NCBI GenBank assembly: GCA_039186435.1
Contig: JBCDAA010000001.1
Location: forward strand, 2,433 to 66,432
Direction of reading: 5' to 3'
Source of the DNA: Myxococcota bacterium
GTDB taxonomy: Bacteria > Myxococcota_A > Polyangia > Polyangiales > Houyiibacteriaceae
Length of the DNA stretch: 64,000 nt
Positions 13,489 to 49,994 of the stretch are shown piece after piece. The first letter of the stretch is position 1; each line of letters opens with the position of its first letter. The position numbers and the translations under genes were made by a program. The notes under the pieces are model-generated. The model saw only the letters and a program-made list of their open reading frames with translations, was not told where the DNA came from and ran no database searches.

Positions 13489-13555
13489 ATGCGAATTCCT
13501 TGCAAGATCAACGCTTGACGTAGTCCCGTCCGACGAGGTCCACTTCGCCCTGCGG

Positions 13556-31366: not shown

Positions 31367-33202
31367 GTGATGCGGCAGTTCGTTTCTCTCGGAGTCTTTC
31401 CCGTTCTCGTCGGGGTGTTGCCATTCCTGCACGGTTGCGGTGCACCGGCGCAGGGGCAGGACGTGGCTTGGTACGACCCTGCACCGCTCCTCGCGAACCT
31501 GCGTGCGGACGACCGCCGCAACGTCAGCAGCTACACGCCTCACGGGCCGAATGCGGTCCCCTACTACGACCTCGACCTTTCGCTCGCGCACAACCAAACC
31601 CGCTTCGAGATGGACGAAGAGGTGTGGTTTACGAACACCACGGGGGGCGAGCTCGAAGACTTGGTGCTTCGGGTGTTCGCGAACTCGGTCGGGGACTCGC
31701 CAAGGATTCGCGTGTCGGACGTTCGCTGTGTTGCGGCGACATGCACGTCCGAAATCGATGCGCGCCACGGCGCGATCACCGTTCGTCCTGAGACCGCGAT
31801 TCCGGAAGGCGGTCGGCTTCGGGTGCGGCTGCGTTTGAACGGCGCCCTGACGCATATCGATCCCCAGCGAACCGGGATGATGGCGCAGGCCATGGAGAGC
31901 CAGGCGCAGCTCTCGTCCGGCAACCTCCATGGCGACTACGGACTTCTCGCGGAGAGCAACGGCGTAGCGTCGCTCGGGAACTTCTACGCCATGGTTGCCG
32001 CGCGCCGGGGCGGCCGTTGGGTGAAGCGCGACGAGAGCACGATGGGCGATCTCGGAAGCGGCGACATCAGCCACTTTCGCGCGCGTATTCGTTGTGCCCC
32101 GGGCTCGCGAGTGGCCGTGAGTGGTCACGTTCTTCGTGAGGAGACGGTGCTGGGGCAGCCGACGCAGCACGAGGTGCGTGCGGTCGCGGGGATGGTTCGC
32201 AACTTTGCGATCGTCGTGAGCGACCGGCTCGAGTTTGTGCAGCGCGAGGTGAACGGCGTGACCGTTCGAAGCTGGTTTGAACCGGCGGATCGTTCAGAGG
32301 GCGCGACGGTGCTCGCGTCGGCGGCCGAGGCCCTACGGATTTTTGAGCGACGTTTTGGCCCCTATCCGTACACCGACTTGGACGTCGTGGAGGCGCCTCT
32401 TGTCGGCGGCGCGGGCGGCGTGGAGTTCAGCGGGCTCGTAACCATCGCGAAGATGTTTTACCCGTCGGGGGACGGGGCGGGACTCGGGATCATCGGTGCG
32501 CTGATGAATCGGCAAGGTTCCGGTCCGGGGATGCGCGAGTCGATGCTCGAGTTCGTGGTGGCGCACGAGGTTGCCCATCAGTGGTGGCACGGTGTGGTTG
32601 GAAGCGACGCGCGGCTTCATCCCTTCGTGGACGAATCGCTCGCGCAGTTCAGTTCGGTTCGCTACATGCGGGATCGCCATGGGGCCGAGCGTGCGGAGCT
32701 GGAGTCGCGCCGGCAGGTGGCGTCGAACTACCACATGATGCGGAATCAAGGGCTGGAGGATGGTGCGGTCGATCGCCCCGTCGCGTCCTTTCAGCATCCG
32801 ATGGCGTACGCCGGGCTCGTGTACGGGAAGGGCGCGTTCGCGTATCGCGAGACGGAGCGCGTGGTCGGCGAGGCGGCGTTCTATCGCGCGCTTCGACGCT
32901 ACGTGCGGGAGAATCGTTTTGGCGTGGCGGAGCCGCGGTCCCTCTTTTCGCTTTTGGCGCGCGGTCGCCATCGGCGCGCGGTTCGGCGGATCGAGCGGCG
33001 GTGGCTCGATGGGACGCACGGCGACGAGGATCTTGGTGCAGCCGACATGGGCCGCATGATGGCGGATTGGTTCGGCGGCGGTGGTGAAGGCGGCGCGGGC
33101 GGCATGCTCGACCAGGTGATGCAGCTCCTCGGCGGGACCGGGAACGCGCCACCGAATCTCGATGCGGACGCGCTCCAGGACGCGCTTCGCAGTCTTCAGT
33201 AG
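31367..33202 (+). CDS. M1-family zinc metallopeptidase (aminopeptidase N-like), secreted/lipoprotein
   Basis: Signal FPVLVGVLPFLHGCG. HEXXH-E zinc site VAHEVAHQWWHGVVGSD...VDESLAQF. Degenerate GAMEN region (GGAGGVEFSG). Confidence 0.85.
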   Translation: MMRQFVSLGVFPVLVGVLPFLHGCGAPAQGQDVAWYDPAPLLANLRADDRRNVSSYTPHGPNAVPYYDLDLSLAHNQTRFEMDEEVWFTNTTGGELEDLVLRVFANSVGDSPRIRVSDVRCVAATCTSEIDARHGAITVRPETAIPEGGRLRVRLRLNGALTHIDPQRTGMMAQAMESQAQLSSGNLHGDYGLLAESNGVASLGNFYAMVAARRGGRWVKRDESTMGDLGSGDISHFRARIRCAPGSRVAVSGHVLREETVLGQPTQHEVRAVAGMVRNFAIVVSDRLEFVQREVNGVTVRSWFEPADRSEGATVLASAAEALRIFERRFGPYPYTDLDVVEAPLVGGAGGVEFSGLVTIAKMFYPSGDGAGLGIIGALMNRQGSGPGMRESMLEFVVAHEVAHQWWHGVVGSDARLHPFVDESLAQFSSVRYMRDRHGAERAELESRRQVASNYHMMRNQGLEDGAVDRPVASFQHPMAYAGLVYGKGAFAYRETERVVGEAAFYRALRRYVRENRFGVAEPRSLFSLLARGRHRRAVRRIERRWLDGTHGDEDLGAADMGRMMADWFGGGGEGGAGGMLDQVMQLLGGTGNAPPNLDADALQDALRSLQ

Positions 33203-33391
33203 ATGGGGCGTTTGTTGCTCAGCCTGCAGGTGATGACGTTGCTGGCGGGATGCGACCCCACCAGCCACTGCGCGCGCCACCGCGAGAGTGCCCAGTCTCG
33301 GAATGGTCTCGATGTGCGCTGTCAGCGCTGCTGCTGGGAGTACGGGCAGGATGGGCATTTCGATGCGGAAGGCGTTTGCCGGTGTCGCTGA
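33203..33391 (+). CDS. Possible small Cys-rich lipoprotein (62 aa)
   Basis: The ATG directly abuts the TAG of the peptidase gene. Lipobox MTLLAGC, then 7 further Cys including CQRCC and CRC. No homology recognised, so it may be spurious. Confidence 0.3.
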   Translation: MGRLLLSLQVMTLLAGCDPTSHCARHRESAQSRNGLDVRCQRCCWEYGQDGHFDAEGVCRCR

Positions 33392-33421
33392 GCTCCTCGC
33401 CTGCGATCGACGAAGAATTGC

Positions 33422-34075
33422 GTGGCTGACCTCCCGCCGCCGCGACGGGTGCGATGTGTCGTGCTGCCGGACGGCCGCTTACTCTGCGGATCGGAGTTTG
33501 AGCTGACGACGCTGATCGCGGAGGTGCAGAAACGACAGTCGCCGTTCGAGGTGGTGCTTTTGCTTGGGGCGATGCTGGTTGCGATCGCGATTTCGGATGG
33601 CTTCCTTGCGCTTGCCGCCATCGGTGGCGTTGCCGCGGTCATCGTTCTCCTGTGGTTTGCGGTCCGTTCGAGTCGGGCAACGGCGTCGCGGGAGCGTGCG
33701 CTCTGGTTTGGCGTGGACGGTGTTCTCTTTCCGGAGCGATTTGCTCGCCACGATCAGATCGCGTCCGCGACGGTGGACGATCGACGCGTCGTTTTTGAGA
33801 TTCGATCCTCTCGCGGAGTGCAGACGAAGACGCTGACGTTCGTGGACGCGGAGAAGGCGGAAGAGGTTTTCCGCACCTATCGCGCACGTCGGACGCACTT
33901 CGAAAGGCTCACCGCGACGGAGCCGGCGCTTGCGCGGGAGGGGTACCGACAAACTCGAGTGGAGGGAACGCGAACCGAAGTTGGCAGACTCCTGATGGGG
34001 GAGCTTTGGGCGGAGGACGCCGACGACGACGTGGTGGAAGCGATCCGGCAGCATCTCGCCGAGGGTCGCGAGTAG
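33422..34075 (+). CDS. Hypothetical membrane protein (two TM helices plus a cytoplasmic domain)
   Basis: 217 aa. Hydrophobic hairpin VVLLLGAMLVAIAISDGFLALAAIGGVAAVIVLLWFAV. Coding-like G/C third positions. Confidence 0.5.
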   Translation: MADLPPPRRVRCVVLPDGRLLCGSEFELTTLIAEVQKRQSPFEVVLLLGAMLVAIAISDGFLALAAIGGVAAVIVLLWFAVRSSRATASRERALWFGVDGVLFPERFARHDQIASATVDDRRVVFEIRSSRGVQTKTLTFVDAEKAEEVFRTYRARRTHFERLTATEPALAREGYRQTRVEGTRTEVGRLLMGELWAEDADDDVVEAIRQHLAEGRE

Positions 34076-34080
34076 GCCAA

Positions 34081-34210
34081 CCGTCCGAGGTGCGTCTCAG
34101 AACGGGTGGGTGGCCCAACCTCGGCCTTTGGTCGAATCGCGGAAAACCACGTGTCAAAACAGGTGGGTGGCCTCGACTTGGCCTGGACTCGGTCCGTCCG
34201 AGGTGCGAAC
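34081..34210. repeat. Composite intergenic repeat: two CCGTCCGAGGTGCG motif copies flanking a 57-bp-spaced imperfect direct repeat (core GGTGGGTGGCC)
   Basis: Motif at 34081-34094 and 34194-34207. Direct repeat cores at 34105-34115 and 34162-34172. It lies in the 351-bp spacer upstream of the sterol operon. Confidence 0.8.
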
Positions 34211-34426
34211 CCCGGTCGCGGGCGCCGAGGCGTAACAGAACGGAAACATTAGGATTCTTGTTCGATACCGCCGCGCCACCCCGGCTCGCACCGCCAGGGG
34301 AACGACTCGCCGGAGCCCAAGCCGGCTCGCCGGATAGTCTCCCGCGCTCGACACAGCCCCTGCTACCCACCTGCTGCGCAAAAGTGTGCGGTGTTGCCGC
34401 CGTCGCACTGTGCAGAAGGTGCACAC

Positions 34427-37400
34427 ATGAACCTTGCGAACAACTACGACGTGGTGGTGGTGGGTGCGGGACCGGCTGGAACCGGAGCCGCCGCAGGACA
34501 CGCGTGCCGCGGCGCCCGCGTTTTGCTGCTCGAGGCCAACCCCAAGGCGTCCCATCGCTTTGCCGGCGAGTGGATTCACCACACCGGCCGCGCCGTCCTC
34601 GAGCGAATGGGGCTCGCGCCCCAGGCTGCCACCGCCCACCACCCGCCGTGCCGGGGCTTCGCTGTCTTCCCCGACGACGGCTCCGAACCGATTCAGCTTC
34701 ACTACGCGGACGGCACCCTCGGGTTTTCCTCCGAGCACGGCGAGCTCGTAGAGGAGCTCCGGGCTCGTGCCGTCGCGATGGATGGCATCACCTACCTCGA
34801 GCGCGCCCGGGTCACGTCGGTCGGCGCGGACTCGGTCACCTTCAAGTACAAAGGCGGGCAGGAAACCGTTCGCGCGGGTCGCATCGTCGCCGCCGACGGC
34901 CGCTCCTCGGTCGTGCGCAGGTCTCTTCGCGCGGAAGATCAAAGCGACGTCCTCAGCCACATGGCGGGCGTAGAGCTTCACGGCACACTCCCCTTCGAGG
35001 GTTTCGGCCACGTATTGCTCGGCGGACCGGGCCCGGTTTTGCTCTACCGCATTGCCGAAAATCGTATCCGCGCATGCATCGACATTCCGGTGGGTGCCCC
35101 GGGCGCTCGCCGCGACGCGCGCTTTCTTTGGGACGCGTTCGCGCCCCGCTTTCCGGCGCAGCTTCGTGGCGCGCTTCGAGAGGCTCTCGAGTCCCGCCGC
35201 GTGTCCTGGGCCTGCAATCGCTTCATGCCGCGGACGTTTTACGGCGAGGGTCGCATCGCTCTCATCGGAGACGCGGTCGGCTTCTACCACCCGCTTACGG
35301 CAAGTGGGATCACGATCGGCCTCAAGGACGCCGAAGCGCTGGTTGCAAGCGATACGGTCGCCGAGTACGCGCGCACTCGTGAGCCCCAGAGCTACGTTCC
35401 CGAACTCCTCGCGAACGCTCTCAACCAGGTCTTCATGCGGGAAGACGAGAGCGCGGAAGCGATTCGGCGCGCCGTCTTTGAGATGTGGCGCGGTCACGCG
35501 GACGAACGCGAGCGGACGATGCGAATCCTCGCGGGCGACGAGGTTCGCGTGGACCAGTTTGGGGCAGCGTTCTTTCGTGTCGCGATCCGCGCGGTGCGCG
35601 ACGTCGCCAAGGACAACCCGCGCACGCTCCGCCGCTTTGTGGAGTGGAGTCAGTGGCCGGGCGCGACGCTTGTTCCCGACCGCATTCGTCGCCGGATTCG
35701 CCCGGCGAGCAGCACCAACCACCCGCTGAAGGGCCTCCGTTTTGCGCCGACGCCTTTCTCCTTTGCGGAGGCGGAAGCGCCGAAGCTGACGGTAACGGTG
35801 GACGTCGACCGGATGCTCTCGCGGATCGACGACGAAGACATTCGCGCCCTTCCGGCGGTGGAGGCCCGCGCCGAGGCGCTTCGCTACGCGGTTGCAGAGC
35901 GAAACGTCGACGCGATCATGGAAGCGACGGAGCGCCTGCTCTCGGTTTGCATCGACACGACCTCGGGCGCTCGGGCCGCGGCTAGCGCGCTTCGGGATCT
36001 CAAGGACGCGTTTCCGGGGCTGCTCGCGGTCGAGGTTCGCCGAACGGAGTTGGCGATCCAAACGTTTCTTCGCGGACTCCAGGCCGAACGCGGGGCGTTC
36101 GGAACCCTCCGCGAAACGGCCGAAGCAATGGAAGCGCTGGTCGCCACCGGCGTTCCGGTATTTCACGCATCCGTCCGGCGGGCGTTTCGCTCCCTCGGCG
36201 CCGCGCAGCGTCCTGACGGAAGCTGGGACGGCGATGCTGCGACGACGGCCGTGGTCGCGCGCGCGCTCCTCGCAACGCGCTGCCCTCTTTTCGAAGCAGC
36301 CGAGCACGGGCTTTCGTTCCTGAACGATGCGGTGGTGCTCGACGCGACTGCAGGTGAAGCGCTTCGTCTCTACCGTGACCTGCGCACGATGCGGGTGACG
36401 CCCGTCAAGGCGCGCGGCGACGCGACCAAGGCGTCGAACGAAGACCACGCCTACTGCAAGGAGAGCCTCCTCGCGGTCTCGCGCAGCTTTGCCCGACCGA
36501 TCGAAATGCTGCCTGGCGATCTTCGCACGGCCGTTACGTGCGGCTATCTCCTCTGCCGCATCGCCGACACGGTGGAAGACAACGCGTTCTTCTCGACGGA
36601 AGAGCGCGACGAGCGCTACGCGACCTTCCTTCGGGCGCTCGGCGGCGACGAGAACGCCATCGCAACCTTCGAGCGTCAGTTCGTGGGCATTCGCGGCAAC
36701 GAGATCGAAAACGATCTCTGCCGTCACCTCTCGGTCGTGCTTCGCGTCTTCCGCACGCTCCCCGCGGGCATGCAGACGAAGACGGTCCGCTGGGTCGCTG
36801 AGATGACCCGCGGCATGCAGATCTACAGTCACCGCGACGCGGGCGACGACGGCATCGTGGCCGTGCACACGGTCGAAGATCTCGAGCGTTACTGCTTCTA
36901 CGTCGCCGGCACCGTTGGCCACATGCTCACCGATCTCTTCGTCGAGTCCTTCGGCGAGGTTGGCACCTCGGTCGAGCACGGCCTTCGCGAGCAGGCGGAA
37001 GCCTTCGGCATCGGCCTTCAGCTCGTGAACATCCTCAAGGACGTCACCGACGACAAGGAGCGCATGGTCTCCTACGTGCCGCGCGTGTCCTGCGCGAAGC
37101 AGGGTCTGAGCCTCGACGAGCTCCTCGAGCCGCAGCGTCGCGACACGGCGCACGCGGTGGTCGCGCCGCTCTTCGACGCCGCACAGGGTCGCCTCGATCG
37201 CGCCCTCGAGTACGTGCTGCAGATCCCGAAGGAGCATCAGCCGGTGCGCCTCTTCTGTCTGCTTCCCCTTTGGATGGCGGTTCGCACGCTCGTTCACGCG
37301 CGCGGCAACGACGCGATGTTCACGACGGGCGCCGCGGTGAAGATCAGCCGCGCCGAGGTCGAGCAGCTCATCGGCGACTGCCTCGCGAGCGCCGGCAACG

Positions 37401-37480
37401 ACGACCAGCTTCGGGCTCACTACGACGCGCTCTGGCGCGCGCCCGCCCTCACGACCTCCAGCAGCCTGCAGCTGAATTAG
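34427..37480 (+). CDS. Fusion protein: N-terminal FAD-dependent squalene monooxygenase (epoxidase), ~270-aa helical linker, C-terminal squalene synthase (SQS/PSY family)
   Basis: N-terminus: VVVGAGPAG, VAADGRSSVVR, GDAVGFYHPLTASGITIG (SE-type GDAxNxRHPLTGGG). C-terminus: AVSRSFARPI, YLLCRIADTVED (DTxED), YCFYVAGTVGHMLTDLF, GIGLQLVNILKDVTDD. Single uninterrupted frame; start set to ATG 34427. Confidence 0.88.
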   Translation: MNLANNYDVVVVGAGPAGTGAAAGHACRGARVLLLEANPKASHRFAGEWIHHTGRAVLERMGLAPQAATAHHPPCRGFAVFPDDGSEPIQLHYADGTLGFSSEHGELVEELRARAVAMDGITYLERARVTSVGADSVTFKYKGGQETVRAGRIVAADGRSSVVRRSLRAEDQSDVLSHMAGVELHGTLPFEGFGHVLLGGPGPVLLYRIAENRIRACIDIPVGAPGARRDARFLWDAFAPRFPAQLRGALREALESRRVSWACNRFMPRTFYGEGRIALIGDAVGFYHPLTASGITIGLKDAEALVASDTVAEYARTREPQSYVPELLANALNQVFMREDESAEAIRRAVFEMWRGHADERERTMRILAGDEVRVDQFGAAFFRVAIRAVRDVAKDNPRTLRRFVEWSQWPGATLVPDRIRRRIRPASSTNHPLKGLRFAPTPFSFAEAEAPKLTVTVDVDRMLSRIDDEDIRALPAVEARAEALRYAVAERNVDAIMEATERLLSVCIDTTSGARAAASALRDLKDAFPGLLAVEVRRTELAIQTFLRGLQAERGAFGTLRETAEAMEALVATGVPVFHASVRRAFRSLGAAQRPDGSWDGDAATTAVVARALLATRCPLFEAAEHGLSFLNDAVVLDATAGEALRLYRDLRTMRVTPVKARGDATKASNEDHAYCKESLLAVSRSFARPIEMLPGDLRTAVTCGYLLCRIADTVEDNAFFSTEERDERYATFLRALGGDENAIATFERQFVGIRGNEIENDLCRHLSVVLRVFRTLPAGMQTKTVRWVAEMTRGMQIYSHRDAGDDGIVAVHTVEDLERYCFYVAGTVGHMLTDLFVESFGEVGTSVEHGLREQAEAFGIGLQLVNILKDVTDDKERMVSYVPRVSCAKQGLSLDELLEPQRRDTAHAVVAPLFDAAQGRLDRALEYVLQIPKEHQPVRLFCLLPLWMAVRTLVHARGNDAMFTTGAAVKISRAEVEQLIGDCLASAGNDDQLRAHYDALWRAPALTTSSSLQLN

Positions 37481-37490
37481 GACAACGACG

Positions 37491-38594
37491 ATGCCTGCTT
37501 CCGACGCCCCCATTCTTGTCACCGGCGCCGCCGGCCACCTTGGCGCCAACCTCGTTCACGAACTCGTGGGCCGCGGCGAGCGCGTTCGCGTCCTCCTTCG
37601 CGCCGAAGAAAACAACGAAGCCGTTGACGGTCTCGATGTGGAGCGCGCCTTTGGCGATCTCCGCGACGCGAGCTCCCTGAAGATCGCGGTCGATGGCTGC
37701 CGCCAGGTCTTTCACGTCGCCTCGATGGTCTCGACCCTCGACGGTGACTCGGCGCACAAGCGAACCATCTACGACACGAACGTGATGGGGACGCGGCACC
37801 TTCTGCACGCCGCGCAGCGCGCCAACGTCGATCGCTTCGTGCTGACGAGCTCCTTCAGCGCCGTTGGCTACGACCAGGATCGCACGGACCTGCCCTCCGA
37901 CGAGACGAACCAGTTCTTCCCCTTCATTCAGGCGATGCCCTACGAGCGCACCAAGGTGCTCCAGGAGCACGAGCTGCTGAAGGCGGTCGCGGAAAACGGC
38001 ATGGACGCGCTCATCGTCACGAGCTGCGCCATCGTTGGCGGCCACGACTACCTGCCGTCGCGCATGGGCCGAACGCTCTGCAAGATGGCGAACCGTGAGC
38101 AGCGCGCCTACGTCGATGGCGGTTTCGAGTTCGTCGCTGCGCGCGACATCGTTGCCGGTCATCTCCTCGCGATGGAGCGCGGCCGCAAGGGTCACAAGTA
38201 CATCGTCGCGACGCAGTTCATGACCCTCGACGATATTTTCGACATTCTCGAGGAGATTACGGGGCAGCCCCGACCCAAGTACCGCATTCCAACCAAGGCG
38301 CTCCTTCCGGTGGCCGAGGTTGTGAGTCGCGCGCTCTACGCGCTGAACCCTTCGTTCCCGCAGCTTTTGACGCCAGGCGCGATCCGCAAGCTTCGTCCGC
38401 GCCGTCACGCCGACACGAGCAAGGCGCGGCGCGAACTTGGCTTTCGCCCCTCGTCGCTCGAGGAAGCGTTTCGCGAGGCCTACGCGTTTCATTGGAAGCG
38501 CGGCGCTATCACGCACCCCGGTGCGAAGCGACCGAAGGTGGCGGCCGCGTCGAAAACGACCGTCTCCCCGACCTCCATTCCCATTCACGCGTGA
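37491..38594 (+). CDS. Extended SDR, 3-beta-hydroxysteroid dehydrogenase/NAD-dependent epimerase family (SdmB-like candidate C4-demethylation reductase/decarboxylase)
   Basis: ILVTGAAGHLGANLVHEL Rossmann motif and PYERTK (YxxxK). 10-nt gap from the upstream gene and 5-nt gap to the Rieske gene. Confidence 0.8.
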   Translation: MPASDAPILVTGAAGHLGANLVHELVGRGERVRVLLRAEENNEAVDGLDVERAFGDLRDASSLKIAVDGCRQVFHVASMVSTLDGDSAHKRTIYDTNVMGTRHLLHAAQRANVDRFVLTSSFSAVGYDQDRTDLPSDETNQFFPFIQAMPYERTKVLQEHELLKAVAENGMDALIVTSCAIVGGHDYLPSRMGRTLCKMANREQRAYVDGGFEFVAARDIVAGHLLAMERGRKGHKYIVATQFMTLDDIFDILEEITGQPRPKYRIPTKALLPVAEVVSRALYALNPSFPQLLTPGAIRKLRPRRHADTSKARRELGFRPSSLEEAFREAYAFHWKRGAITHPGAKRPKVAAASKTTVSPTSIPIHA

Positions 38595-38599
38595 ATCTG

Positions 38600-39763
38600 A
38601 TGAGCCGTATTTACACGCAAGACCCGAGTCGTCGTCCGCCGACCTTTGAGGAAGCGCGCAACACGCGCCAGAAGGTGCGCGCTGCCGGGATGCATCCCGA
38701 CTATTGGTATCCCGCTCTCTGGGAGGGGGACCTCAAGGCTGGCGAGGTTAAAGAGGTCGTCTTTTGGCGGCGTAGCATCGCGGTCTACCGCGGGGATGAC
38801 GGTCAGGTGCGAGCGGTCGAGAACCGCTGCGCGCACCGGCAGCTGAAGCTCACCGGCGGCTTCGTCGAAGGCTGCAACCTGGTTTGCCCGTACCACGGCT
38901 GGAGCCACAACGGTGAAGGCAAGGTGGTCGACATTCCGCACTCGCTCTTCGGAAAGAAGTACCCGAAGTTCAAAGTGCCCGCCGTGCCGGTCAAGATTCG
39001 CTACGGCGTCATCTGGATCTTTCCGGGCAATCCCGACAAGGCGGAGACGGTCGCGCTCCCGGAGATTCCGGAGCTGGAGGGCCGTGATCCCTGGGCGCAC
39101 ATCGCGGTCGACTACACCGTGTCCGCGCACCACTCGATGGTGATCGACAACGTTTCCGACTTTACCCACGCCTACCTTCATCGGCGCTTCAAGCCCTTCT
39201 CCGACGCCCAGCTTCTCCGCTACGAGCTCATCGGTGACACCATCGAGCTCGAGTACAACACCAAGGTGGGCCGCGGCCGCTTCAGCGGGCTCTTCGTGGA
39301 TCGCAAGAGCGTCGACACCGAGCACATGAAGCTCGCCTTCGAGTATCCGTACCAGCGCTCCAACACCGACGACCAAATCAAGCACTGGCTCTTCGTGCGG
39401 CCGATCGACGAGCGCACCACGGCGACCTTCTATATTTTCTATTTCCGAAAGTTCACGATTCCGTTCACGAGTCGTGCGATTCCAAAGCCCATCCTGAGAA
39501 CCTTCCTTCGCATCGCGAAGAAGATGACGGTGGGACCGCTGCTCCAGGAAGACGCGGACGCCGTCGACGCCGAGCAGCGCGGTTACGAAGACCATTTCGA
39601 CGCTCCGATCGCGGAGCTCAATCCGGTCGTCAAAGCGTTTCAGTCGCTGACGATTCGGAAGTGGCAGGAGTACCTGGACAGCCAGGGCAAAACCTCCCTC
39701 AAGAAGAAACCAAAGAAGACGAAAACCCCGGCCGCCACCGGTTCCACAACGGCGAACGCGTAG
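38600..39763 (+). CDS. Rieske [2Fe-2S] non-heme iron oxygenase (SdmA-like candidate sterol C4-methyl oxidase)
   Basis: Rieske CAHRQLKL...CPYHGWSH. Mononuclear iron motif DNVSDFTHAYLH. Start set to ATG 38600 (MSRIYTQ). Confidence 0.85.
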   Translation: MSRIYTQDPSRRPPTFEEARNTRQKVRAAGMHPDYWYPALWEGDLKAGEVKEVVFWRRSIAVYRGDDGQVRAVENRCAHRQLKLTGGFVEGCNLVCPYHGWSHNGEGKVVDIPHSLFGKKYPKFKVPAVPVKIRYGVIWIFPGNPDKAETVALPEIPELEGRDPWAHIAVDYTVSAHHSMVIDNVSDFTHAYLHRRFKPFSDAQLLRYELIGDTIELEYNTKVGRGRFSGLFVDRKSVDTEHMKLAFEYPYQRSNTDDQIKHWLFVRPIDERTTATFYIFYFRKFTIPFTSRAIPKPILRTFLRIAKKMTVGPLLQEDADAVDAEQRGYEDHFDAPIAELNPVVKAFQSLTIRKWQEYLDSQGKTSLKKKPKKTKTPAATGSTTANA

Positions 39764-39772
39764 GAGACAACG

Positions 39773-41056
39773 ATGGAAGAGCGCAGCTCACGGATTCCCG
39801 GTTTCTATCGCCTTGACGTGACGTCGCGGCACCACGAGCTCCAAAGCCGCTTTGGGCTGACGAGCGACGAGGTCGACATTCTCCGGGACGGCAGCCGTCT
39901 CGACGTCGGTCGCGCGGACAAGATGGTCGAAAACTGCGTCGGCGTCTTCGGACTGCCGATCGGTCTCGGTCTCAACTTCCTCGTGAACGGCCAGGACTAT
40001 GCCGTACCGATGGTGGTGGAGGAGCCGAGCGTTGTGGCCGCGGTCAGCAACATGGCGCGCACGGTGCGTCAGGTGGGCGGCTTCACAGCGGACGCGGACG
40101 ACTCGCTCATGATCGGCCAGGTGCAGATCGTGGAGACGCCGGACCCGGCCGACGCCGTGGAGCGCTTGAAGGCCGCGCGCCAGGCGATCCTCGACAAGGC
40201 CAACGCCGTGCACCCAAACATGAAGCGTCGTGGCGGCGGCGCGCGGGAGATCGAGGTTCGTCTCTTCGAGGAGCCGTACCCGATGATCGTGCTTCATCTG
40301 ATCGTCGACTGCGGCGAGGCGATGGGCGCAAACGCGATCAACGCGATGGCCGAGGGCGTCGCGGGTCTGGTGGAAGAGCTCAGCGGCGGCCGTGTGAACC
40401 TCCGCATCCTGTCGAATCTCGCCGATCGGCGCTGCGCGCGCGCACACTGCCGCATTCCAGAGCTGCTCCTCGCGGGCAACGGCTTTAGCGGCACCGAGGT
40501 CGCTGAGGGCATCGTGCAGGCGTACCGCTTTGCCGCGGTCGATCCCTACCGCGCGGCGACCCACAACAAGGGCGTCATGAACGGCATCGACGCGGTCGCG
40601 ATCGCGACCGGCAACGACTGGCGCGGCGTCGAAGCAGGAGCCCACGCTTTTGCCGCACGCGACGGGCGCTACACCTCGCTCACGCGCTGGTGGCGGGAAG
40701 ATGGTCACCTTCACGGTTCGATCGAACTTCCGATGGCCGTCGGCGTGGTCGGCGGGAGCACGAATGTGCACCCCACCATCAAGGTGATGCGAAAGATCCT
40801 CGCCATCGAAAGCGCTGCGGAGCTCGGCATGGTGATGGCGGCGGTCGGTCTTGCGCAGAACATGGGCGCCCTTCGTGCGCTCGCGACCGAAGGCATTCAG
40901 CGCGGTCACATGAGCTTGCACGCGCGGCAGATCGCGCTCGCCGCGGGCGCCGAGGGCAAGCAGGTCGAGAAGATCGCGGACCAGCTCGTCGCCATGGGCA
41001 AAGTAAAGATCGACGTCGCGCGGGACCTTCTCGAAGGTCAGCAAAAGGTCAGCTGA
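39773..41056 (+). CDS. Class II HMG-CoA reductase
   Basis: ENCVGVFGLPIGLGLNF, VEEPSVVAA, GEAMGANAINAM, THNKGVMNGIDAVAIATGNDWR. 427 aa with no membrane domain. Confidence 0.92.
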   Translation: MEERSSRIPGFYRLDVTSRHHELQSRFGLTSDEVDILRDGSRLDVGRADKMVENCVGVFGLPIGLGLNFLVNGQDYAVPMVVEEPSVVAAVSNMARTVRQVGGFTADADDSLMIGQVQIVETPDPADAVERLKAARQAILDKANAVHPNMKRRGGGAREIEVRLFEEPYPMIVLHLIVDCGEAMGANAINAMAEGVAGLVEELSGGRVNLRILSNLADRRCARAHCRIPELLLAGNGFSGTEVAEGIVQAYRFAAVDPYRAATHNKGVMNGIDAVAIATGNDWRGVEAGAHAFAARDGRYTSLTRWWREDGHLHGSIELPMAVGVVGGSTNVHPTIKVMRKILAIESAAELGMVMAAVGLAQNMGALRALATEGIQRGHMSLHARQIALAAGAEGKQVEKIADQLVAMGKVKIDVARDLLEGQQKVS

Positions 41057-43125
41057 TGCAAAGCGCCGCGGACGTGCTCGCGCGGGGGACCCGGCGCCTG
41101 GTGGACCTCCAACTCGATCCGCGTGACGGTGAGACACGCCCCGAGCGAAGCGACCTCCCCAATAAATACTGGGAAGGGGAGGACATCTGGAACTCCATGC
41201 TCGCCGCGCAGTTCGCGCTCGCGTGGCACATCATGGAGCGTCCTCTCAGCAAGGAACGCCGCGAGCGCATCCTGACCCAGTTTCGCCACGAGCAGCTTCC
41301 GGGCGGGCTCTGGGGCATGCATCGCTTTGGCGAGCCTTCGCTCTTTGTGACGACGCTGGTGTACGTCGCGAGTCGCACGCTTGGCGTGTCGGCGAACGAC
41401 CCCTTCCTCGCGCCGGCGCGCGCGTTCTTCGCCCAGGAAGACGTTCTCGAGATTCCGAGTTGGGGCAAAGCCTGGCTGGCGCTGACGAACCTCTACGAGT
41501 GGTGGGGCGTTAACGCCGTGCCGCCCGAGGCGTGGCTTTTGCCGGAGCGTTTTCCGCTGCATCCGGCGAACTACTACTGTCATACGCGCCTCATCTACAT
41601 GGGCATGGCGAGCGTCTTCGGGTTGAAACTGCAGGCGCGGCGGACGGCGCTTACCGACGAACTTCGCGATGAGCTTTACCCCGGCCGAGACTACCGGCGG
41701 CTGGATTTTGCGGGCAGCCGTCACGCGCTTCGCAAGGGCGACCTTTGGGCGGCGCCGACGCGCGCGCTCCGCACCATGTACAACGCGGTGAATGTCTTTG
41801 AGCGCTTTCACGCACCGGCCCTTCGGCGCCGCTGCCTGAAGACGCTTCGCGAGCGGATGCGCTGGGAGCTTCGCTCGAGCGACTACACGTGTCTTTCGCC
41901 GGTCAACGGTCTGCTCTTCATGCTCACGCTTTGGGCGTGGGATAAGCACGACGAAGTGCTCCAAAAGCAGGTCGCGCGCTTCGACGGCTGGATCTGGGAA
42001 GACGACGAGGAAGGGCTTCGCGTTTGCGGCGCCCGGAGCGCGACCTGGGACACGAGCTTTGTGCTTCAGGCGCTGAGTGCGGCGCGGCCTTCGCTGCCGA
42101 AAGGCGCCGCGGACGACGCGCTCGTTAGCGGTCTCGGCTGGCTGAAGACGCAGCAGATGCACGGTCCGGTGACCGGCGACAAAGACGACTACAAAAAAGC
42201 GTATCGCCTCGACCCGACCGGCGGCTTTTGTTTTGCCGGCGTATGGCACGGCTGGCCCGTGAGCGACTGCACCGCCGAAGCGCTCTGCGCGTTTCTCGAA
42301 GCGCCGCGGGATCTCTTTCAGGCCGACCGACACGCGGTCGAAGCCGGGATTCGTTTCCTGCTTCAGTGCCAGAACAAAGACGGCGGCTTCGGCAGCTACG
42401 AGTCGCGCAAAACGCACGTAAATCTCGAGTGGATGAACCCCGCCGAGATGTTCGGCGACTCGATGACGGAGCTCTCCTACTACGAGTGCACCGCATCGAA
42501 TCTCATCGCGCTCGCGGAGGTGCGAAAGCGCTACCCGAATCTGCTTCGCCGGGAGATCGACCGCGCCATCGAGCGCGCCGAAACGTACCTGCGGCAGTCG
42601 CAGAACGCGGACGGAAGCTGGAACGGCGCCTGGGGCGTCGCGTTTCTCTACGGAACGCTCTTTGGCATACGTGGTCTTCGTGCCGCGGGCGCGCTGGAGA
42701 ATGACCCGGCCATCGAGAGCGCGCGTGCCTTCGTTCGCAAGCACCAGCGCGAGGACGGAAGTTGGGGCGAGCACTGGCGGACCTGTCTGACGGATCGCTA
42801 CGAGGATCTCGGCCACGGCCACGTCGTGCAGACGGCCTGGGCACTCCTTGCGCTACTGGAGTCCGGCGAGGACGACGCGAGCGTTCTCGAGCCCGCGATG
42901 CGCTGGCTTTCGGACGCGCAGCTCCCGAATGGGGACTGGTCCGAGCAGGAGTTCGCTGGCGTGTTCTTTCGAACCGCCCTCATCGAATATCGACTTTATC
43001 GCCGGATCTTCCCGGTTTGGGCCCTGGCGCAGTACGAGGCGCTTCGCGCGACGCGTGAGAAGGCCCACCCGAAGACCGCGCCGATCGCCCCGAGCACGCT
43101 AAAGGAACACCATGTCAGGTCTTAG
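41056..43125 (+). CDS. Oxidosqualene cyclase (lanosterol/cycloartenol synthase family)
   Basis: Catalytic VSDCTAEAL (DCTAE, not the SHC DxDDTA). Several QW repeats (QNADGSWNGAWG, QREDGSWGEHW, QNKDGGFGSYE, QLPNGDWSEQE). ATG 41056 overlaps the HMGR stop (TGATG). The upstream part of ORF 40690.. is an out-of-frame overlap of HMGR. Confidence 0.92.
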   Translation: MQSAADVLARGTRRLVDLQLDPRDGETRPERSDLPNKYWEGEDIWNSMLAAQFALAWHIMERPLSKERRERILTQFRHEQLPGGLWGMHRFGEPSLFVTTLVYVASRTLGVSANDPFLAPARAFFAQEDVLEIPSWGKAWLALTNLYEWWGVNAVPPEAWLLPERFPLHPANYYCHTRLIYMGMASVFGLKLQARRTALTDELRDELYPGRDYRRLDFAGSRHALRKGDLWAAPTRALRTMYNAVNVFERFHAPALRRRCLKTLRERMRWELRSSDYTCLSPVNGLLFMLTLWAWDKHDEVLQKQVARFDGWIWEDDEEGLRVCGARSATWDTSFVLQALSAARPSLPKGAADDALVSGLGWLKTQQMHGPVTGDKDDYKKAYRLDPTGGFCFAGVWHGWPVSDCTAEALCAFLEAPRDLFQADRHAVEAGIRFLLQCQNKDGGFGSYESRKTHVNLEWMNPAEMFGDSMTELSYYECTASNLIALAEVRKRYPNLLRREIDRAIERAETYLRQSQNADGSWNGAWGVAFLYGTLFGIRGLRAAGALENDPAIESARAFVRKHQREDGSWGEHWRTCLTDRYEDLGHGHVVQTAWALLALLESGEDDASVLEPAMRWLSDAQLPNGDWSEQEFAGVFFRTALIEYRLYRRIFPVWALAQYEALRATREKAHPKTAPIAPSTLKEHHVRS

Positions 43126-44101
43126 TCGAGACGCTTTTCAGGACACCGTTCGCGAGTACCGCGGCCTTCACGACGACTCGGACGTCGAGACGCGCAAGGC
43201 GCAGTACACGACCCTGGTCAACCAGTACTACGACCTGGCGACGGACTTCTACGAGTTCGGCTGGGGCCAGCACTTTCATTTTGCGCCGCGCTTCAAGCAC
43301 GAGAAGTTTCTCGACTCGCTGCATCGCCACGAGCGTTTTCTCGCGCGCAAGCTTCGCCTCTACCCGGGTCAGGAAGTCCTCGACGTCGGCTGTGGCGTGG
43401 GCGGTCCCGCGCGTTACATCGCGAAGCACACGGGTGCATCGATCACCGGCGTGAACAACAACGCCTACCAGATCGAGCGCGGCCAGCGGCACACGCGCCG
43501 CGCAAAGCTCGCGCACCTCGTTCGCTTTCAGAAGGCGGACTTCATGGAGCTCCCCTACGAGGACGATCACTTCGACGCCATCTACACGATCGAAGCGTCC
43601 TGCCACGCGCCCGACCGCGTGAAGCTTTTCGAGGAGCTCCGCCGGGTGATGAAGCCGGGCGCGGTCTTCGGCGGCTACGAGTGGTGCCTCACGGATCGCT
43701 ACGACGCGGACAATCCCGCCCACCAGAAGATCAAAAAGGACATCGAGGTCGGCAACGGCCTCCCGGACCTTTCGCACACCTCGGTGATCGATCGCTCCCT
43801 CGAGAAAGCCGGCTTCGAGCTGATCGAGACCAAGGACCTGGCGCCGACGGGCGACCCCCAGACGCCCTGGTACCTCGCGCTCACGGGCGGCGACCTGTCG
43901 CTTTCGAGCATTCCGCGGACGCCCATCGGTCGCGAGATCACCAACGCGGTCACCGTGATCCTGGAGAAGCTTCGCCTCGCGCCGAAGGGCACCAAGCAGG
44001 TCAGCGACTTCCTCAACGAAGGCGCAGACGCGCTGGTGGCCGGCGGTGAGACCGGCACCTTCACGCCGATGTACTTCTTCCTGGTTCGCAACCCCGGCTG
44101 A
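43112..44101 (+). CDS. Sterol C24-methyltransferase (ERG6/SMT family, SAM-dependent)
   Basis: YYDLATDFYEFGWGQHFHF (SMT region I), SAM motif VLDVGCGVGGPARYIA, IEASCHAPD, and a C-terminal sterol-MT region. Overlaps the OSC 3' end by 14 nt. Confidence 0.9.
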   Translation: MSGLSRDAFQDTVREYRGLHDDSDVETRKAQYTTLVNQYYDLATDFYEFGWGQHFHFAPRFKHEKFLDSLHRHERFLARKLRLYPGQEVLDVGCGVGGPARYIAKHTGASITGVNNNAYQIERGQRHTRRAKLAHLVRFQKADFMELPYEDDHFDAIYTIEASCHAPDRVKLFEELRRVMKPGAVFGGYEWCLTDRYDADNPAHQKIKKDIEVGNGLPDLSHTSVIDRSLEKAGFELIETKDLAPTGDPQTPWYLALTGGDLSLSSIPRTPIGREITNAVTVILEKLRLAPKGTKQVSDFLNEGADALVAGGETGTFTPMYFFLVRNPG

Positions 44102-44213
44102 CGATTAGGCCGTCGCGCAGACGCCGCTTTCGGAAACGGTCGATGGGCCCATCCCCGAAGCGTTCACGGAGTTTGCTCCGAAGCGCGGCGAGGAGAGGGC
44201 CTTTCGTGTGTTG

Positions 44214-45767
44214 CTAAACGACGGACTCGACCCGCCGAATGCCCTTGCGGGAAACCACAACGCGAATACGCCGCCACGGAGCGCTCTCGTCCTTTGCGGT
44301 GCGTAGGCGATACACGATGGCGATGTTGTACACCCGCGGCGCGACGGCGGAGTAGATGTGGCGGTCGTCCGGATCCGCGAAGACGATCCGCTGCTTGGGG
44401 TCGTCTGTGTGCATGAGCCAGCGCTGAAGGTCGAGGCGAAAGACCTCGGTGATGGCGACGAAGCGATCGTCGCACTTGCCGATGCTCTCGGGATCCCAGC
44501 GGCAACGCTTTTGGTGCCAGAGAACCGCTTCGGGACGCGCATGCCGTTCAAGGTCGTGGGCGCGCGTGCTGTTTCGAACCGCCAGCACGTCCTCAGGCAG
44601 CTCCGCGCCTTTCACAAAGCTAGACCGTTCCTGAACGGTACCCACCGTCTGCTTCGACTCGGGTTCGCTCACTCGCCAGCGACGATCGGGAAGACGACGA
44701 GCCACCCAGCGGGAGAACACGCCCTGCAGAGTCGCCTTGATGCGGTCCTTGCCGGCGTAGGCGAGCATGACGATCGTCGCCCACGCCCAGAGGTCGCCGA
44801 GGCGGCGCCAGGTCGCACCGTGATAGGCCGCCATGATGATGGCGAAAGCCATCGCCAAGGATGCCGCCACCGCGTAGAGAATCTGCAGCGTAAGGCGCCC
44901 TCCCTCAGCGACGTCGCGGTGCAGATGAAGCACCGACGCACTGAAGCGCTTGAGCAAATGCCGGCGAAACTCAAGGTGTTCGACGTCTCGTTTGTCAACG
45001 GTGGCCGTACCGACGCCGTCCATCTCGCGATCGCGACGGTAGCGCGCTTCTCGAACCGCGCTTGCCGCAATGCGTGAGGCGACCTTCTGGTGGCCGGCTT
45101 CGCGCAGCTGCAGCGAGAGCGTGGCGAGCGTCGTCTCGATGAGAACGGAAAGGTCCTCGTCGATGTACTGCGCCGCGACCAGGGTGGCGTCGCTTTGGCA
45201 CTGGTCGATCGCCTCGCGAACCCGCAGAAGAAGCTGTCGGCTTTGAGACGCGAGGGAGAGCGCAGCGCTCGGCGCGGTTTCTTCGCCAAGTTCGAGGAGC
45301 TCTTGAATGTGCCGGCGCGCCGCGCTGATCGACGTGCGCACGCAGCTCGCAAAGATTCGGAGCTCGCGCAGCGCGATCGCGTCCGGGCGCGTCACCGCAA
45401 TCGGAAGACTCTTCGCCTGCTCGACGAGCTCGTCGAGAGGACGTCCGGCAACCGCAAAGCGCACGTAGCTGTGGAGGTCTTCGTAGATATGTCCCTTGCC
45501 GTACGTGTGCTTATTGACGCGCAGGCTGTCGGGAACGAAGAAGTAGGCTTCCCAGACGTAGTCGCGTTCGCCCTTCTTCGTGGGGTAGTCGATCGCGAAC
45601 TCGAGGTGCGTCCGGTCGTGGACCCGCCACTGCGGCGGGCTGTCCCCGGGGCTGAGCTCACCAAGAAGAGAAGCCCATTCCGTGGGAGGTGCGAGCGTGC
45701 TCCGCAAGGGGGCCGCCCGAAGTTGCGCCTCGGCGCGCCGCTTGGCTGTGGACGCCACGTCTGTCAC
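44214..45767 (-). CDS. Hypothetical membrane protein (helical N-domain, 2 TM helices, C-terminal domain)
   Basis: 517 aa with a GTG start. TM pair LTLQILYAVAASLAMAFAIIMAAY / LWAWATIVMLAYAG. No family recognised. Convergent with the sterol methyltransferase gene. Confidence 0.6.
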   Translation of the reverse strand: MTDVASTAKRRAEAQLRAAPLRSTLAPPTEWASLLGELSPGDSPPQWRVHDRTHLEFAIDYPTKKGERDYVWEAYFFVPDSLRVNKHTYGKGHIYEDLHSYVRFAVAGRPLDELVEQAKSLPIAVTRPDAIALRELRIFASCVRTSISAARRHIQELLELGEETAPSAALSLASQSRQLLLRVREAIDQCQSDATLVAAQYIDEDLSVLIETTLATLSLQLREAGHQKVASRIAASAVREARYRRDREMDGVGTATVDKRDVEHLEFRRHLLKRFSASVLHLHRDVAEGGRLTLQILYAVAASLAMAFAIIMAAYHGATWRRLGDLWAWATIVMLAYAGKDRIKATLQGVFSRWVARRLPDRRWRVSEPESKQTVGTVQERSSFVKGAELPEDVLAVRNSTRAHDLERHARPEAVLWHQKRCRWDPESIGKCDDRFVAITEVFRLDLQRWLMHTDDPKQRIVFADPDDRHIYSAVAPRVYNIAIVYRLRTAKDESAPWRRIRVVVSRKGIRRVESVV

Positions 45768-48794: not shown

Positions 48795-49994
48795 TCACGC
48801 ACGCGAGGTATCGATGCGGATTTCGTTCTCCAGCGTGCGGTGCACCGGGCAGCGGTCCGCGATCTCCATCATGCGAGCGCGCTGCTCCTCCGTGAGGTCA
48901 CCGACGATCTCGATCGTTCGCGTAAGAACGTCGATATGCCCGGTTTTCTTGGTGCACTCCTCGCAGTCCTTGGCGTGTTCCCGGCCATGTCGGAGGGAGA
49001 CCCGAACCGCCTCGAGGGGCCACTCCTTTCGGTCGGCGTACATTCGGAGCGTCATGGACGTGCATGTGCCGAGGGCCGCCAGCAACAATTCGTAGGGGCT
49101 CGGACCGAGGTCTGCGCCGCCCATGCGCGTGGGTTCGTCGGCGATGACCTGGTGGGTCCGCGCGCGAACCTGCTGCGTGAAGCCTTCGCGTCCCTCGACG
49201 ATCACTTCCCCCTTCTCGGTGGGGGCGCCTTCCTCGGCAACGTAGCGCCCCGCCCAGGAAGCGAGAACGTCCGCCACGTATTGCGCGTCCGAGGTGCGAC
49301 CGAGGAGGTGGTCGGCGCCGTCGAGGCTCACAAAGCTCTTCGGGTGCCGCGCGGCTTCGTAGATGCGCCGGGCGTTGTCGATGCCCACGATGTTGTCCTG
49401 CGGCGAATGAAAGACGAGCAGGGCGCGCTTGAGGGCGCCGAGCTTTGCCTCGCTAGTGTGGGTGCCGAGGTCGTCGAGAAACTCTTTGCCGATGGTGATG
49501 GTTCGTCCTGCCAGAAGGACATCGGCTTGGCCGTCCGCTTCGATGTCGGCTTCCCGATCGGCGAAGAGATGCCGGACGTGCGCGGGGTCCGCGGGCGCGC
49601 CGATCGTGGATACGGCTTTGACAGAGGCGATCTGCGGTGCGGCAGCGAGCACGGCAGCGCCACCGAGGCTGTGGCCGACCAAAATGCTGGGGCCGGTGAG
49701 GGTTTCCTCGAGAAAGGACGCCGCGCGCAGGAGGTCGCTTACATTGCTTGAAAACGTGGTCCGCGCGAACTCGCCGGACGACTCGCCGAGACCGGTGAAG
49801 TCAAAGCGGAGCGTCGCGATGCCGTAGCGTGCGAGGGCCCGTGAGATGACGCGGACCGGTCGCAGATCCTTGGAACAGGTGAAGCAGTGCGCGAAGACTG
49901 CCGTTCCTCGGAGCGTGCCAGGAGGACGGTGAAGGATTCCAGAGAGCGGTCCCTGGGACCCCTTAAACTCGACCGCGGTTTCGTTCGACGGCAT
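48795..49994 (-). CDS. Bifunctional alpha/beta hydrolase - OsmC/Ohr family protein
   Basis: N-terminus: AVFAHCFTCSKD, GHSLGGAAVL (nucleophile elbow). C-terminus: GPSPYELLLAALGTCTSMTL and ADRCPVHRTL (OsmC Cys pair). Confidence 0.85.
   Translation of the reverse strand: MPSNETAVEFKGSQGPLSGILHRPPGTLRGTAVFAHCFTCSKDLRPVRVISRALARYGIATLRFDFTGLGESSGEFARTTFSSNVSDLLRAASFLEETLTGPSILVGHSLGGAAVLAAAPQIASVKAVSTIGAPADPAHVRHLFADREADIEADGQADVLLAGRTITIGKEFLDDLGTHTSEAKLGALKRALLVFHSPQDNIVGIDNARRIYEAARHPKSFVSLDGADHLLGRTSDAQYVADVLASWAGRYVAEEGAPTEKGEVIVEGREGFTQQVRARTHQVIADEPTRMGGADLGPSPYELLLAALGTCTSMTLRMYADRKEWPLEAVRVSLRHGREHAKDCEECTKKTGHIDVLTRTIEIVGDLTEEQRARMMEIADRCPVHRTLENEIRIDTSRA

Follow-up and report, generated by a model that had tools for sequence, protein, structure and literature searches.

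The window analysed here comprises 64,000 nucleotides of a Myxococcota bacterium of the Houyiibacteriaceae within the Polyangiales (assembly GCA_039186435.1, contig JBCDAA010000001.1, positions 2,433 to 66,432 of the forward strand). It contains a gene whose single product of 1017 amino acids (aa) combines a squalene epoxidase (SE) at the N-terminus, a middle domain derived from a triterpene cyclase and a squalene synthase (SQS) at the C-terminus. We regard it as very likely that this fusion is a bifunctional enzyme, whose C-terminal domain makes squalene from farnesyl diphosphate (FPP) and whose N-terminal domain epoxidises it, feeding the lanosterol-type oxidosqualene cyclase (OSC) of the same operon, with the middle domain as a relic. 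In many Myxococcota the two steps that commit FPP to sterols would lie on one polypeptide, with a fossil of the next pathway enzyme between them.

One continuous frame with two catalytic domains

A first-pass annotation, made from the nucleotide sequence alone, had described one polypeptide with an N-terminal SE and a C-terminal SQS, and the open reading frame (ORF) is indeed continuous over its whole length (Table 1). All eight motifs quoted there were found where they had been placed, namely VVVGAGPAG (residue 10), ADGRSS (156), GDAVGFYHPLTASGITIG (281), QRPDGSW (594), SRSFARPI (685), YLLCRIADTVED (707), YCFYVAGTVG (822) and GLQLVNILKDVTDD (863). The start codon is preceded at a distance of about 8 nt by a GAAGG site resembling a Shine-Dalgarno sequence, and the GC content at third codon positions (0.81) is that of genuine genes of the window, the GC content of which is 65%. 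The full-length AlphaFold2 model has a mean pLDDT of 88.8 and a pTM of 0.67 and is free of any long low-confidence linker, which suggests a compact three-domain protein. No transmembrane helix is predicted in the protein (maximum Kyte-Doolittle mean over 19 residues, 1.42).

Table 1. Positions of the fusion gene, its domains and motifs, the operon genes and the tandem genes of four related loci. Positions refer to the window unless a locus (L) is named.
Feature	Position	Strand	Basis or remark
SE-middle-SQS fusion ORF	34427..37480	+	1017 aa, ATG start, TAG stop, no interruption
SE domain (FAD monooxygenase)	34427..35716	+	residues 1 to ~430; Pfam, PDB match
Middle domain, truncated terpene-cyclase-like alpha/alpha-toroid relic	35717..36439	+	residues ~431-671
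Core of middle domain	35834-36430	+	residues 470-668
QW-type repeat QAERGAF	36080-36100	+	residues 552-558
Invariant Arg-Arg, R584 and R585 ('LRRA')	36176-36181, within 36173-36196	+	family alignment
QW-type repeat QRPDGSW	36206-36226	+	residues 594-600
SQS domain	36440..37477	+	residues ~672-1017; Pfam, NCBIfam, alignments to fungal/human SQS
Short-chain dehydrogenase/reductase (SDR)/3beta-HSD family, NAD(P)-dependent; SdmB-/ERG26-like C-4 demethylation candidate	37491..38594	+	Epimerase 2e-33, 3Beta_HSD 6e-23
Rieske [2Fe-2S] oxygenase, SdmA-like candidate	38600..39763	+	Rieske 1e-20, VanA_C 7e-10; ATG at 38600
HMG-CoA reductase (mevalonate pathway)	39773..41056	+	Pfam HMG-CoA_red 1e-106
OSC, 689 aa	41056..43125	+	Pfam SQHop_cyclase_N + _C; ATG overlaps stop codon of HMG-CoA reductase gene
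Sterol C-24 methyltransferase (ERG6/SMT family)	43112..44101	+	Sterol_MT_C 3e-24, Methyltransf_11 6e-22; overlaps OSC 3' end by 14 nt
L005: SE-OSC, then SE-middle-SQS	5109-8861, 9683-13450
L009: SE-OSC, then SE-middle-SQS	3669-7160, ~7200-10786
L010: SE-OSC, then SE-middle-SQS	6725-10801, 10808-14158
L014: SE-OSC, then SE-middle-SQS	6378-9851, 9911-13384

The N-terminal domain was assigned by Pfam to SE (PF08491, residues 154-398, E 6e-30, 104.6 bits compared to a gathering score of 20.1) and, likewise far over the gathering score, to FAD_binding_3 (residues 7-306, E 8e-21). When its 430 residues were compared with all PDB sequences, human SQLE (6c6n) was the best match (1.1e-28, over residues 5-355), while the second-best flavoenzyme reached merely ~1e-7. 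The FAD fingerprints GAGPAG (GxGxxG, residues 13-18) and ADGRSS (the DG motif, 156-161) do not vary among the 37 family members aligned, and neither does the GD motif GDAVGFYHPLTASG at residues 281-294. The C-terminal helices of the domain end in a conserved EWxQWPxATLVP stretch (406-417), in which W410, P411, A413 and P417 are conserved in the family alignment. In the window protein a Phe aligns with Tyr195 of human SQLE. The position is occupied by Phe in 28 of the 29 bacterial SEs compared, SEs fused to functional-looking OSCs included, and by Trp in one SE-OSC sequence. Because of this distribution the Phe is no sign of decay, and an SE domain inactivated by that exchange could be ruled out.

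The C-terminal domain belongs to SQS_PSY (PF00494, residues 683-976, E 2e-44, far over the gathering score). It carries the motifs SRSF (685-688), DTVED (first Asp-rich motif, 714-718), YCFYVAG (822-828), DVTDD (second Asp-rich motif, 872-876), FC..P (943-947) and VKIxR (971-975), all of them invariant across the 37 family members. SRSF is conserved in human SQS, and the alignment further pairs DTVED with DTLED, YCFYVAG with YCHYVAG, NILKDVTDD with NIIRDYLED, FCLLP with FCAIP and AVKISR with AVKIRK (window and human sequence, respectively). Y822, F943 and both Asp-rich motifs align with human as well as fungal SQS. We take the conserved residues to correspond to Y171, F288, D80/D84 and D219/D223 of human SQS, as addressed by rat/human mutagenesis. 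Of the two half-reactions, the first presumably requires the Tyr of YCxYVAG and the second the Phe of FCxxP, and the Asp-rich motifs are presumably the metal (Mg2+)/diphosphate sites.

Among PDB sequences the C-terminal 354 residues match fungal SQS (7wgh, 2.6e-22), human SQS (1ezf, 4e-19) and trypanosomal SQS (4e-14) better than phytoene synthase (1.8e-10), CrtM/dehydrosqualene synthases (4.7e-10 to 2.9e-7) or HpnC (8e-4). The top match in NCBIfam is TIGR01559 (squal_synth, 1.1e-35) with 123.5 bits, compared to 63 bits for HpnD, 52 for HpnC and 46 for CrtB. These rankings bear out the view that the domain is of the SQS type and not a phytoene or dehydrosqualene synthase.

The middle domain as a cyclase relic

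The segment between the two catalytic domains had been described as a helical linker of about 270 aa, which could not be assigned although it contains one terpene-cyclase-like element, QRPDGSW. That last remark holds; the linker does not. Pfam assigns no family to residues ~400-680, and the middle domain of the window protein stays under Pfam significance. An AlphaFold2 model of residues 395-690, built from an alignment of 19 sequences, is all-helical with nine core helices and predicted with confidence (pLDDT 86, pTM 0.73), so that the segment is more than a mere linker. Across the AlphaFold2 models the core reaches pLDDT values of 86-97. A disordered or coiled linker can be ruled out, as pLDDT exceeds 90 over most of the segment and the homology to cyclases is significant.

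That homology was found at the sequence as well as the structure level. Residues ~401-683 gave a local PDB sequence match to the QW-repeat region of the squalene-hopene cyclase of Alicyclobacillus (2sqc, 2.5e-5). A Foldseek search of the PDB with the middle-domain model returned human OSC first (E 1.1e-3), then the squalene-hopene cyclases of C. fuscus and A. acidocaldarius and C3d-type alpha/alpha toroids, with marginal scores (TM ~0.45-0.5) as expected for a partial toroid. In hhalign comparisons with the OSC of the operon, the middle-domain profile aligned to OSC residues 483-669 (97.4%, E 1.2e-11) and a profile of the long-form middle domains to residues 422-672 of 689 (98.6%, E 7.6e-16). 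Whether it begins at 422 or 483, the aligned OSC region lies downstream of the catalytic DCTAE at residue 404, and upon inspection of the sequence no DCTAE or DxDD motif was found in the middle segment. The aligned stretch of about 200-250 residues falls short of two complete alpha/alpha barrels.

The middle domain is thus derived from a triterpene cyclase, its homology being to the QW repeats of the C-terminal part. As it lacks both the catalytic acid and one half of the cyclase fold, it is very probably devoid of catalytic activity. An active cyclase was ruled out on the same grounds, as the partial toroid aligns downstream of the catalytic motif. An exhaustive HMM search with the middle-domain profile yielded 14,551 representative proteins with E <= 1e-3. 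Among the matches listed, most are matched in four to nine repeated stretches and many are 550-700 aa long; the two which were checked are bona fide cyclases. Collinear matches in a single stretch are mostly members of the fusion family; one such match falls on the last 230 aa of an SE-OSC fusion (P0232, E 3e-29).

Within the fusion family the middle segment comes in two lengths. It measures about 400 aa in the long-form relatives of ~1130-1160 aa, as in Cystobacter and Polyangiales, and about 240 aa in the short-middle clade to which the window protein belongs. The gathering score of SQHop_cyclase_C (PF13243) is passed by the middle segments of P0092, P0033, P0045 and P0031, while those of P0076 and P0069 stay below it. 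The clade of the window lacks about 110 aa of the long form, and with them the first of the three repeats of the type Q-x-x-DG-x-[WF], and keeps QAERGAF and QRPDGSW. Identity within the clade is 39% for the middle domain compared to 64% for SE and 71% for SQS. Despite this fast evolution R584 and R585 are invariant across long and short forms, and nothing in the aligned OSC segment corresponds to this pair. A VDVD motif at residues 458-461 (35798-35809), just before the cyclase-like core, is conserved in the short-middle clade only and is not a DxDD motif.

The sterol operon and the distribution of the fusion

The most informative context was absent from the first-pass annotation: the fusion gene heads an operon of six genes on the same strand, separated by at most 10 nt or overlapping, which includes an OSC requiring oxidosqualene. 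The SDR gene, which is syntenic in L001, L002 and L082-L084, starts 10 nt after the stop codon of the fusion. The OSC contains VSDCTAE, with DCTAE at residue 404 in place of DxDD, and because of this motif it needs 2,3-oxidosqualene. Two residues before the Asp it has a Val, which at this position marks lanosterol synthases according to the Val/Ile-453 rule (as cited in Wei et al. 2016). The fusion is the only SE and also the only SQS found within the window, and no genes for HpnC, HpnD or HpnE were found within it. A non-coding stretch of 350 nt (34076-34426) precedes the fusion and presumably holds the operon promoter; a scan of positions 33000-45000 for sigma-70 consensus promoters and for terminators revealed none above shuffled expectation.

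Enzymatic activities and the direction of flux we infer as follows. The C-terminal domain would condense two molecules of FPP to presqualene diphosphate and reduce this with NAD(P)H to squalene, which the N-terminal flavin-dependent monooxygenase would convert to (3S)-2,3-oxidosqualene. The product would be cyclised by the lanosterol-type OSC encoded four genes downstream of the fusion, and the resulting sterol modified by the SDR and Rieske pair, candidates for C-4 demethylation, and by the C-24 sterol methyltransferase. The HMG-CoA reductase of the operon would supply precursor. The middle domain of ~240 aa may act as a rigid spacer or scaffold which holds the catalytic domains, or possibly as a module binding a membrane, lipids or a partner protein.

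Relatives of the fusion were searched among 5.8 billion proteins, of which 8000 candidates were scored (threshold E <= 1e-10). The search revealed 322 relatives; among the matches listed, all 120 carry PF08491 together with PF00494, and every named organism belongs to the Myxococcota (Polyangiales, Sandaracinaceae, Kofleriaceae, Myxococcaceae, Cystobacter). Within this phylum the fusion persists over a broad span of lineages, with identities as low as 40-45%. The architecture is neither rare nor a novelty in the databases: it forms a large myxobacterial family including RefSeq and UniProt entries of cultured Cystobacter. The nearest relatives are three proteins of uncultured Myxococcota (P0002-P0004), which have 70-72% identity, a length of 1017-1020 aa and a short middle domain. 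Among species-representative genomes the closest match, with 62% identity, stems from a metagenome-assembled genome (MAG) labelled 'Deltaproteobacteria' (L001), in which the gene order is identical. Flanking genes common to the window and its nearest relatives are those for a TPR protein and an M1 peptidase upstream and for an abhydrolase-OsmC protein and a sulfotransferase downstream. With ~62-72% identity to its relatives, the window represents a different species or genus, and its protein is a new member of the short-middle-domain subfamily, at most 72% identical to anything in the databases searched.

Reading frames were checked in the fetched loci to sort the architectures. SE, middle domain and SQS share one ORF in L001-L005, L009, L010 and L014, and a direct SE-SQS fusion of 805-837 aa without middle domain is found in L006 and L013. 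Adjacent unfused SE and SQS genes, about 20 nt apart, occur in L007, L008, L011, L012, L022 and L023. A further type, SE-OSC fusions of ~1110-1170 aa, is encoded in L005, L009, L010, L014, L019, L020, L024-L027 and L065. In four of these loci, from Polyangiales and Sandaracinaceae MAGs (L005, L009, L010 and L014), a long SE-middle-SQS gene follows directly after the SE-OSC gene, so that two SE paralogs stand in tandem, each fused to a different pathway neighbour. The order of the domains in the fusion, although the reverse of the pathway order, is the ancestral gene order SE before SQS, which persists as unfused neighbours in related lineages. The sole candidate for a fusion outside the Myxococcota, L033 from Gemmatimonadota, turned out to be two separate ORFs, and no non-myxobacterial fusion could be confirmed.

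In a simple neighbour-joining tree of the SE domains, calculated from distances and without bootstraps, the OSC-fused SEs form a clade apart from that of the SQS-linked ones. This crude tree lends no support to the idea that the SE-middle-SQS gene arose by recent tandem duplication of the SE-OSC gene next to it. The operon itself varies among the close relatives. L001, L002 and L082-L084 share the short-middle architecture and the operon with the window; of these, L001 and L002 have the Rieske gene, as the window does, while L082-L084, from the closest relatives (70-71% identity), lack it and retain the SdmB-like SDR gene. The capacity for C-4 demethylation may thus have been gained or lost in particular lineages.

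Alternative readings and known counterparts

Several points weigh against a bifunctional enzyme with a relic in its middle. In four loci (L005, L009, L010 and L014) a second SE, fused to OSC, is encoded next door, and the SQS-linked SE of these organisms could be redundant or differently employed. The middle domain is far less conserved than the catalytic domains (39% compared to 64-71% within the clade) and is absent from the family members of ~805-837 aa and from the unfused SE/SQS pairs, so that it is not essential to the chemistry. With 123.5 bits on TIGR01559 the SQS domain lies below the equivalog cut-off of 286.75 and outside formal equivalog membership; that it is a true one-step SQS is deduced from the ranking of the best matches and from motif conservation. 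A fixed geometry between the domains is not proven by pTM alone, and no biochemical characterisation of any member of the fusion family was found in the literature. A flavin reductase, of a family conceivable as electron donor for flavin monooxygenases, is encoded about 30 kb upstream (2733-3218, minus strand) and is not linked to the operon.

Of the alternatives, the one which survives best sees in the middle domain the vestige of an SE-OSC (or SE-OSC-SQS) gene arrangement in an ancestor, decaying and by now a passive spacer, and in the fusion a neutral or weakly advantageous loss of the stop codon between neighbouring SE and SQS genes, which ensures 1:1 co-expression. This is quite conceivable, although we do not favour it. 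It agrees with the coexistence of unfused SE/SQS pairs, direct fusions, and long and short middle forms, and with the SE-OSC genes immediately upstream of the long fusion genes in the four tandem loci. It would also account for the collinear match of the middle profile to the C-terminal part of P0232, for the much faster evolution of the middle domain and for the loss of ~110 aa in the clade of the window. However, the core of the domain is still predicted to fold confidently, the residues which stayed invariant across deep divergence argue for some constraint, and the neighbour-joining tree keeps the SQS-linked SEs outside the clade of OSC-fused SEs, which leaves a recent tandem duplication unsupported.

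Squalene channelling, as suggested in the first-pass annotation, is plausible in itself. It is rather unlikely that the fusion exists specifically in order to pass squalene from SQS to SE without release into the membrane, with the middle domain as part of a tunnel or as a dock for OSC, so that FPP would be turned into lanosterol in one complex. In its favour, SE and SQS catalyse successive steps linked by a very hydrophobic intermediate, the fusion has been kept across much of the phylum, and the full-length model, with the reservation noted for its pTM, looks compact. In addition, the middle domain descends from a protein which binds squalene-like substrates and has retained invariant residues, among them the Arg-Arg pair, across long and short forms, and the SE-OSC fusions of the same lineages indicate a general tendency to link steps physically. 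Against this stand the lack of the cyclase catalytic region in the aligned segment and the common occurrence of members without middle domain and of unfused adjacent pairs, which make the domain and even the fusion dispensable. Moreover squalene partitions into membranes, the usual workplace of both enzymes, and no tunnel is needed.

A more far-reaching version, an 'oxidosqualene factory', is in our opinion equally doubtful. Here the cyclase domain would be a repurposed pseudo-enzyme which hands squalene from SQS to SE or docks the OSC, that is, a sterol metabolon made by domain fusion, and the relic would record an ancestral SE-OSC(-SQS) gene. If this were true, the relic would bear on the assembly of the sterol pathway later inherited by eukaryotes.

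Much less probable is another head-to-head prenyltransferase at the C-terminus (HpnD/HpnC-like, a dehydrosqualene or a phytoene synthase), a flavoenzyme with a different substrate at the N-terminus, or both. The TIGR01559 score under the trusted cut-off would allow for it, and the HpnD, HpnC and CrtB models match significantly, though weaker. However, the models and structures of SQS match far better than any others, and the alignment covers the SQS catalytic core from end to end, with the FCxxP and VKIxR segments aligned to human SQS. Phytoene, dehydrosqualene or HpnCD-type synthases were ruled out by the match ranking and the motif alignment. The lack of HpnC, HpnD and HpnE genes in the window and the substrate requirement of the operon OSC speak against them too, and the SQS route has been reported for myxobacteria (Hoshino & Gaucher 2021). 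For the N-terminus the SE Pfam assignment and the structure match to SQLE are specific (1e-28 compared to 1e-7 for the next flavoenzyme).

That a sequencing or assembly artefact has joined two separate genes, to which one C. fuscus assembly annotating the locus as two proteins (529 and 650 aa) and the unfused pairs of other lineages might point, has a negligible probability and is excluded for practical purposes, because the same uninterrupted frame recurs across dozens of independent assemblies (NCBI MAGs, ENA, JGI, Logan SRA) and several complete Cystobacter genomes, with a middle segment which is itself conserved and predicted to fold confidently. The concern raised initially, that a frameshift or stop might split the frame, is settled by the same assemblies. 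The C. fuscus proteins MFY0575675.1 (529 aa) and MFY0575674.1 (650 aa) are the fusion annotated as two, probably by a frameshift. Among the cluster representatives there are also middle-SQS proteins of 657-696 aa without SE domain (P0159, P0230). Taken together, these cases indicate that fission or truncated gene calls happen in the fusion family.

The best known counterpart of the fusion is D187_003106 of Cystobacter fuscus DSM 2262 (EPX59202.1 / WP_002623688.1; UniProt S9PAC1), a protein of 1163 aa with the same order of SE, cyclase-like middle and SQS. The single-ORF architecture is shared by the C. ferrugineus ortholog WP_071900401.1. At the 90% level D187_003106 clusters with P0092, whose best local alignment covers 61% of the query at 39% identity. 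The middle domain of D187_003106 exceeds that of the window protein by about 110 aa, contains three QW-type repeats and scores above the Pfam gathering threshold of SQHop_cyclase_C. The Cystobacter locus consists of fusion, OSC and MMPL genes and lacks the SDR, Rieske, HMG-CoA reductase and methyltransferase genes of the window operon; in another C. fuscus genome OSC directly follows the fusion. Wei et al. (2016) showed that strain DSM 2262 produces squalene and cycloartenol, and listed D187_003106 as its SE and D187_003104 as its cycloartenol synthase. By analogy, the ortholog may lend in vivo support by proxy to the proposed role of the fusion.

Clusters with OSC, sdmAB-like genes and a sterol methyltransferase were described from uncultured bacteria, including a marine Sandaracinus MAG, and fused SMO/OSC homologs were mentioned in the same study (Brown et al. 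2023, PMC10070321). Like the window protein, these homologs have an N-terminal SE and cyclase QW repeats and are encoded in clusters with sdmAB and methyltransferase genes. They differ in carrying a full catalytic cyclase and no SQS, whereas the window protein has a C-terminal cyclase fragment without DCTAE followed by SQS, and in the simple neighbour-joining tree their SE domains form a clade apart from the SQS-linked SEs. In Stigmatella aurantiaca the gene order ERG1-SQS-ERG7 was noted as a conserved context of three consecutive enzymes (Desmond & Gribaldo 2009, PMC2817430). This is the same order of SE, SQS and OSC, but as neighbouring genes, and no fusion or middle domain is mentioned.

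The closest relatives of the catalytic domains in structural databases are human FDFT1 (1ezf), the fungal enzyme 7wgh and human SQLE (6c6n), the motifs of which are conserved. Eukaryotic SQS and SQLE are separate proteins anchored in the endoplasmic reticulum by transmembrane segments, whereas the window protein joins both and is predicted to be free of such segments. Myxococcota possess the most eukaryote-like bacterial sterol pathway and were proposed as donors of sterol genes to early eukaryotes (Hoshino & Gaucher 2021).

The first-pass annotation knew of no characterised fusion of this kind, and the searchable literature likewise yielded no biochemical characterisation; nor was an SE-SQS fusion found described or tested as such in the open-access texts searched. 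The enzymes, the operon type and the SE-OSC fusions are already known, and the SE-SQS fusion of cultured sterol-producing myxobacteria has long been in public databases under partial names. The Cystobacter protein is called 'hypothetical protein', 'Squalene monooxygenase' or 'squalene/phytoene synthase family protein', and the database names used across the family, 'FAD-binding protein' among them, each cover just a part of the protein. Surveys which count SE and SQS homologs separately may miss that both are one gene. The cyclase-relic nature of the middle domain seems not to have been remarked before. The window adds one more member to the fusion family, and its operon, with a methyltransferase gene, is of a kind known from Brown et al. 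(2023).

The series of SE-OSC, SE-relic-SQS, SE-SQS and separate SE/SQS genes is an evolutionary marker from which the assembly of sterol gene clusters may be reconstructed, and the fusion offers a natural system for asking whether squalene is channelled. Judged by its sequence, a soluble-looking protein predicted to lead from FPP to oxidosqualene might be useful for engineering sterols or triterpenoids in bacteria.

Two genes 5-6 kb downstream of the operon are syntenic in L082: an alpha/beta-hydrolase-OsmC fusion (48795-49994, minus strand) and a sulfotransferase (50165-51334, plus strand), for which a role in sterol sulfation is conceivable. Besides the non-coding 350 nt, the 1-kb stretch between the M1 peptidase gene and the fusion contains only ORFs without Pfam match on an ambiguous strand (33422-34075 plus, 33479-34054 minus). 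A wax-ester synthase/acyltransferase of the WS/DGAT type (4177-5589, minus strand) is encoded about 30 kb upstream and is not linked to the operon. An ORF of 2234 aa (18931-25635, plus strand) with SpvB, TcdB middle/N, FG-GAP and RHS repeats resembles Tc/RHS-type toxins and is unrelated to the sterol operon.

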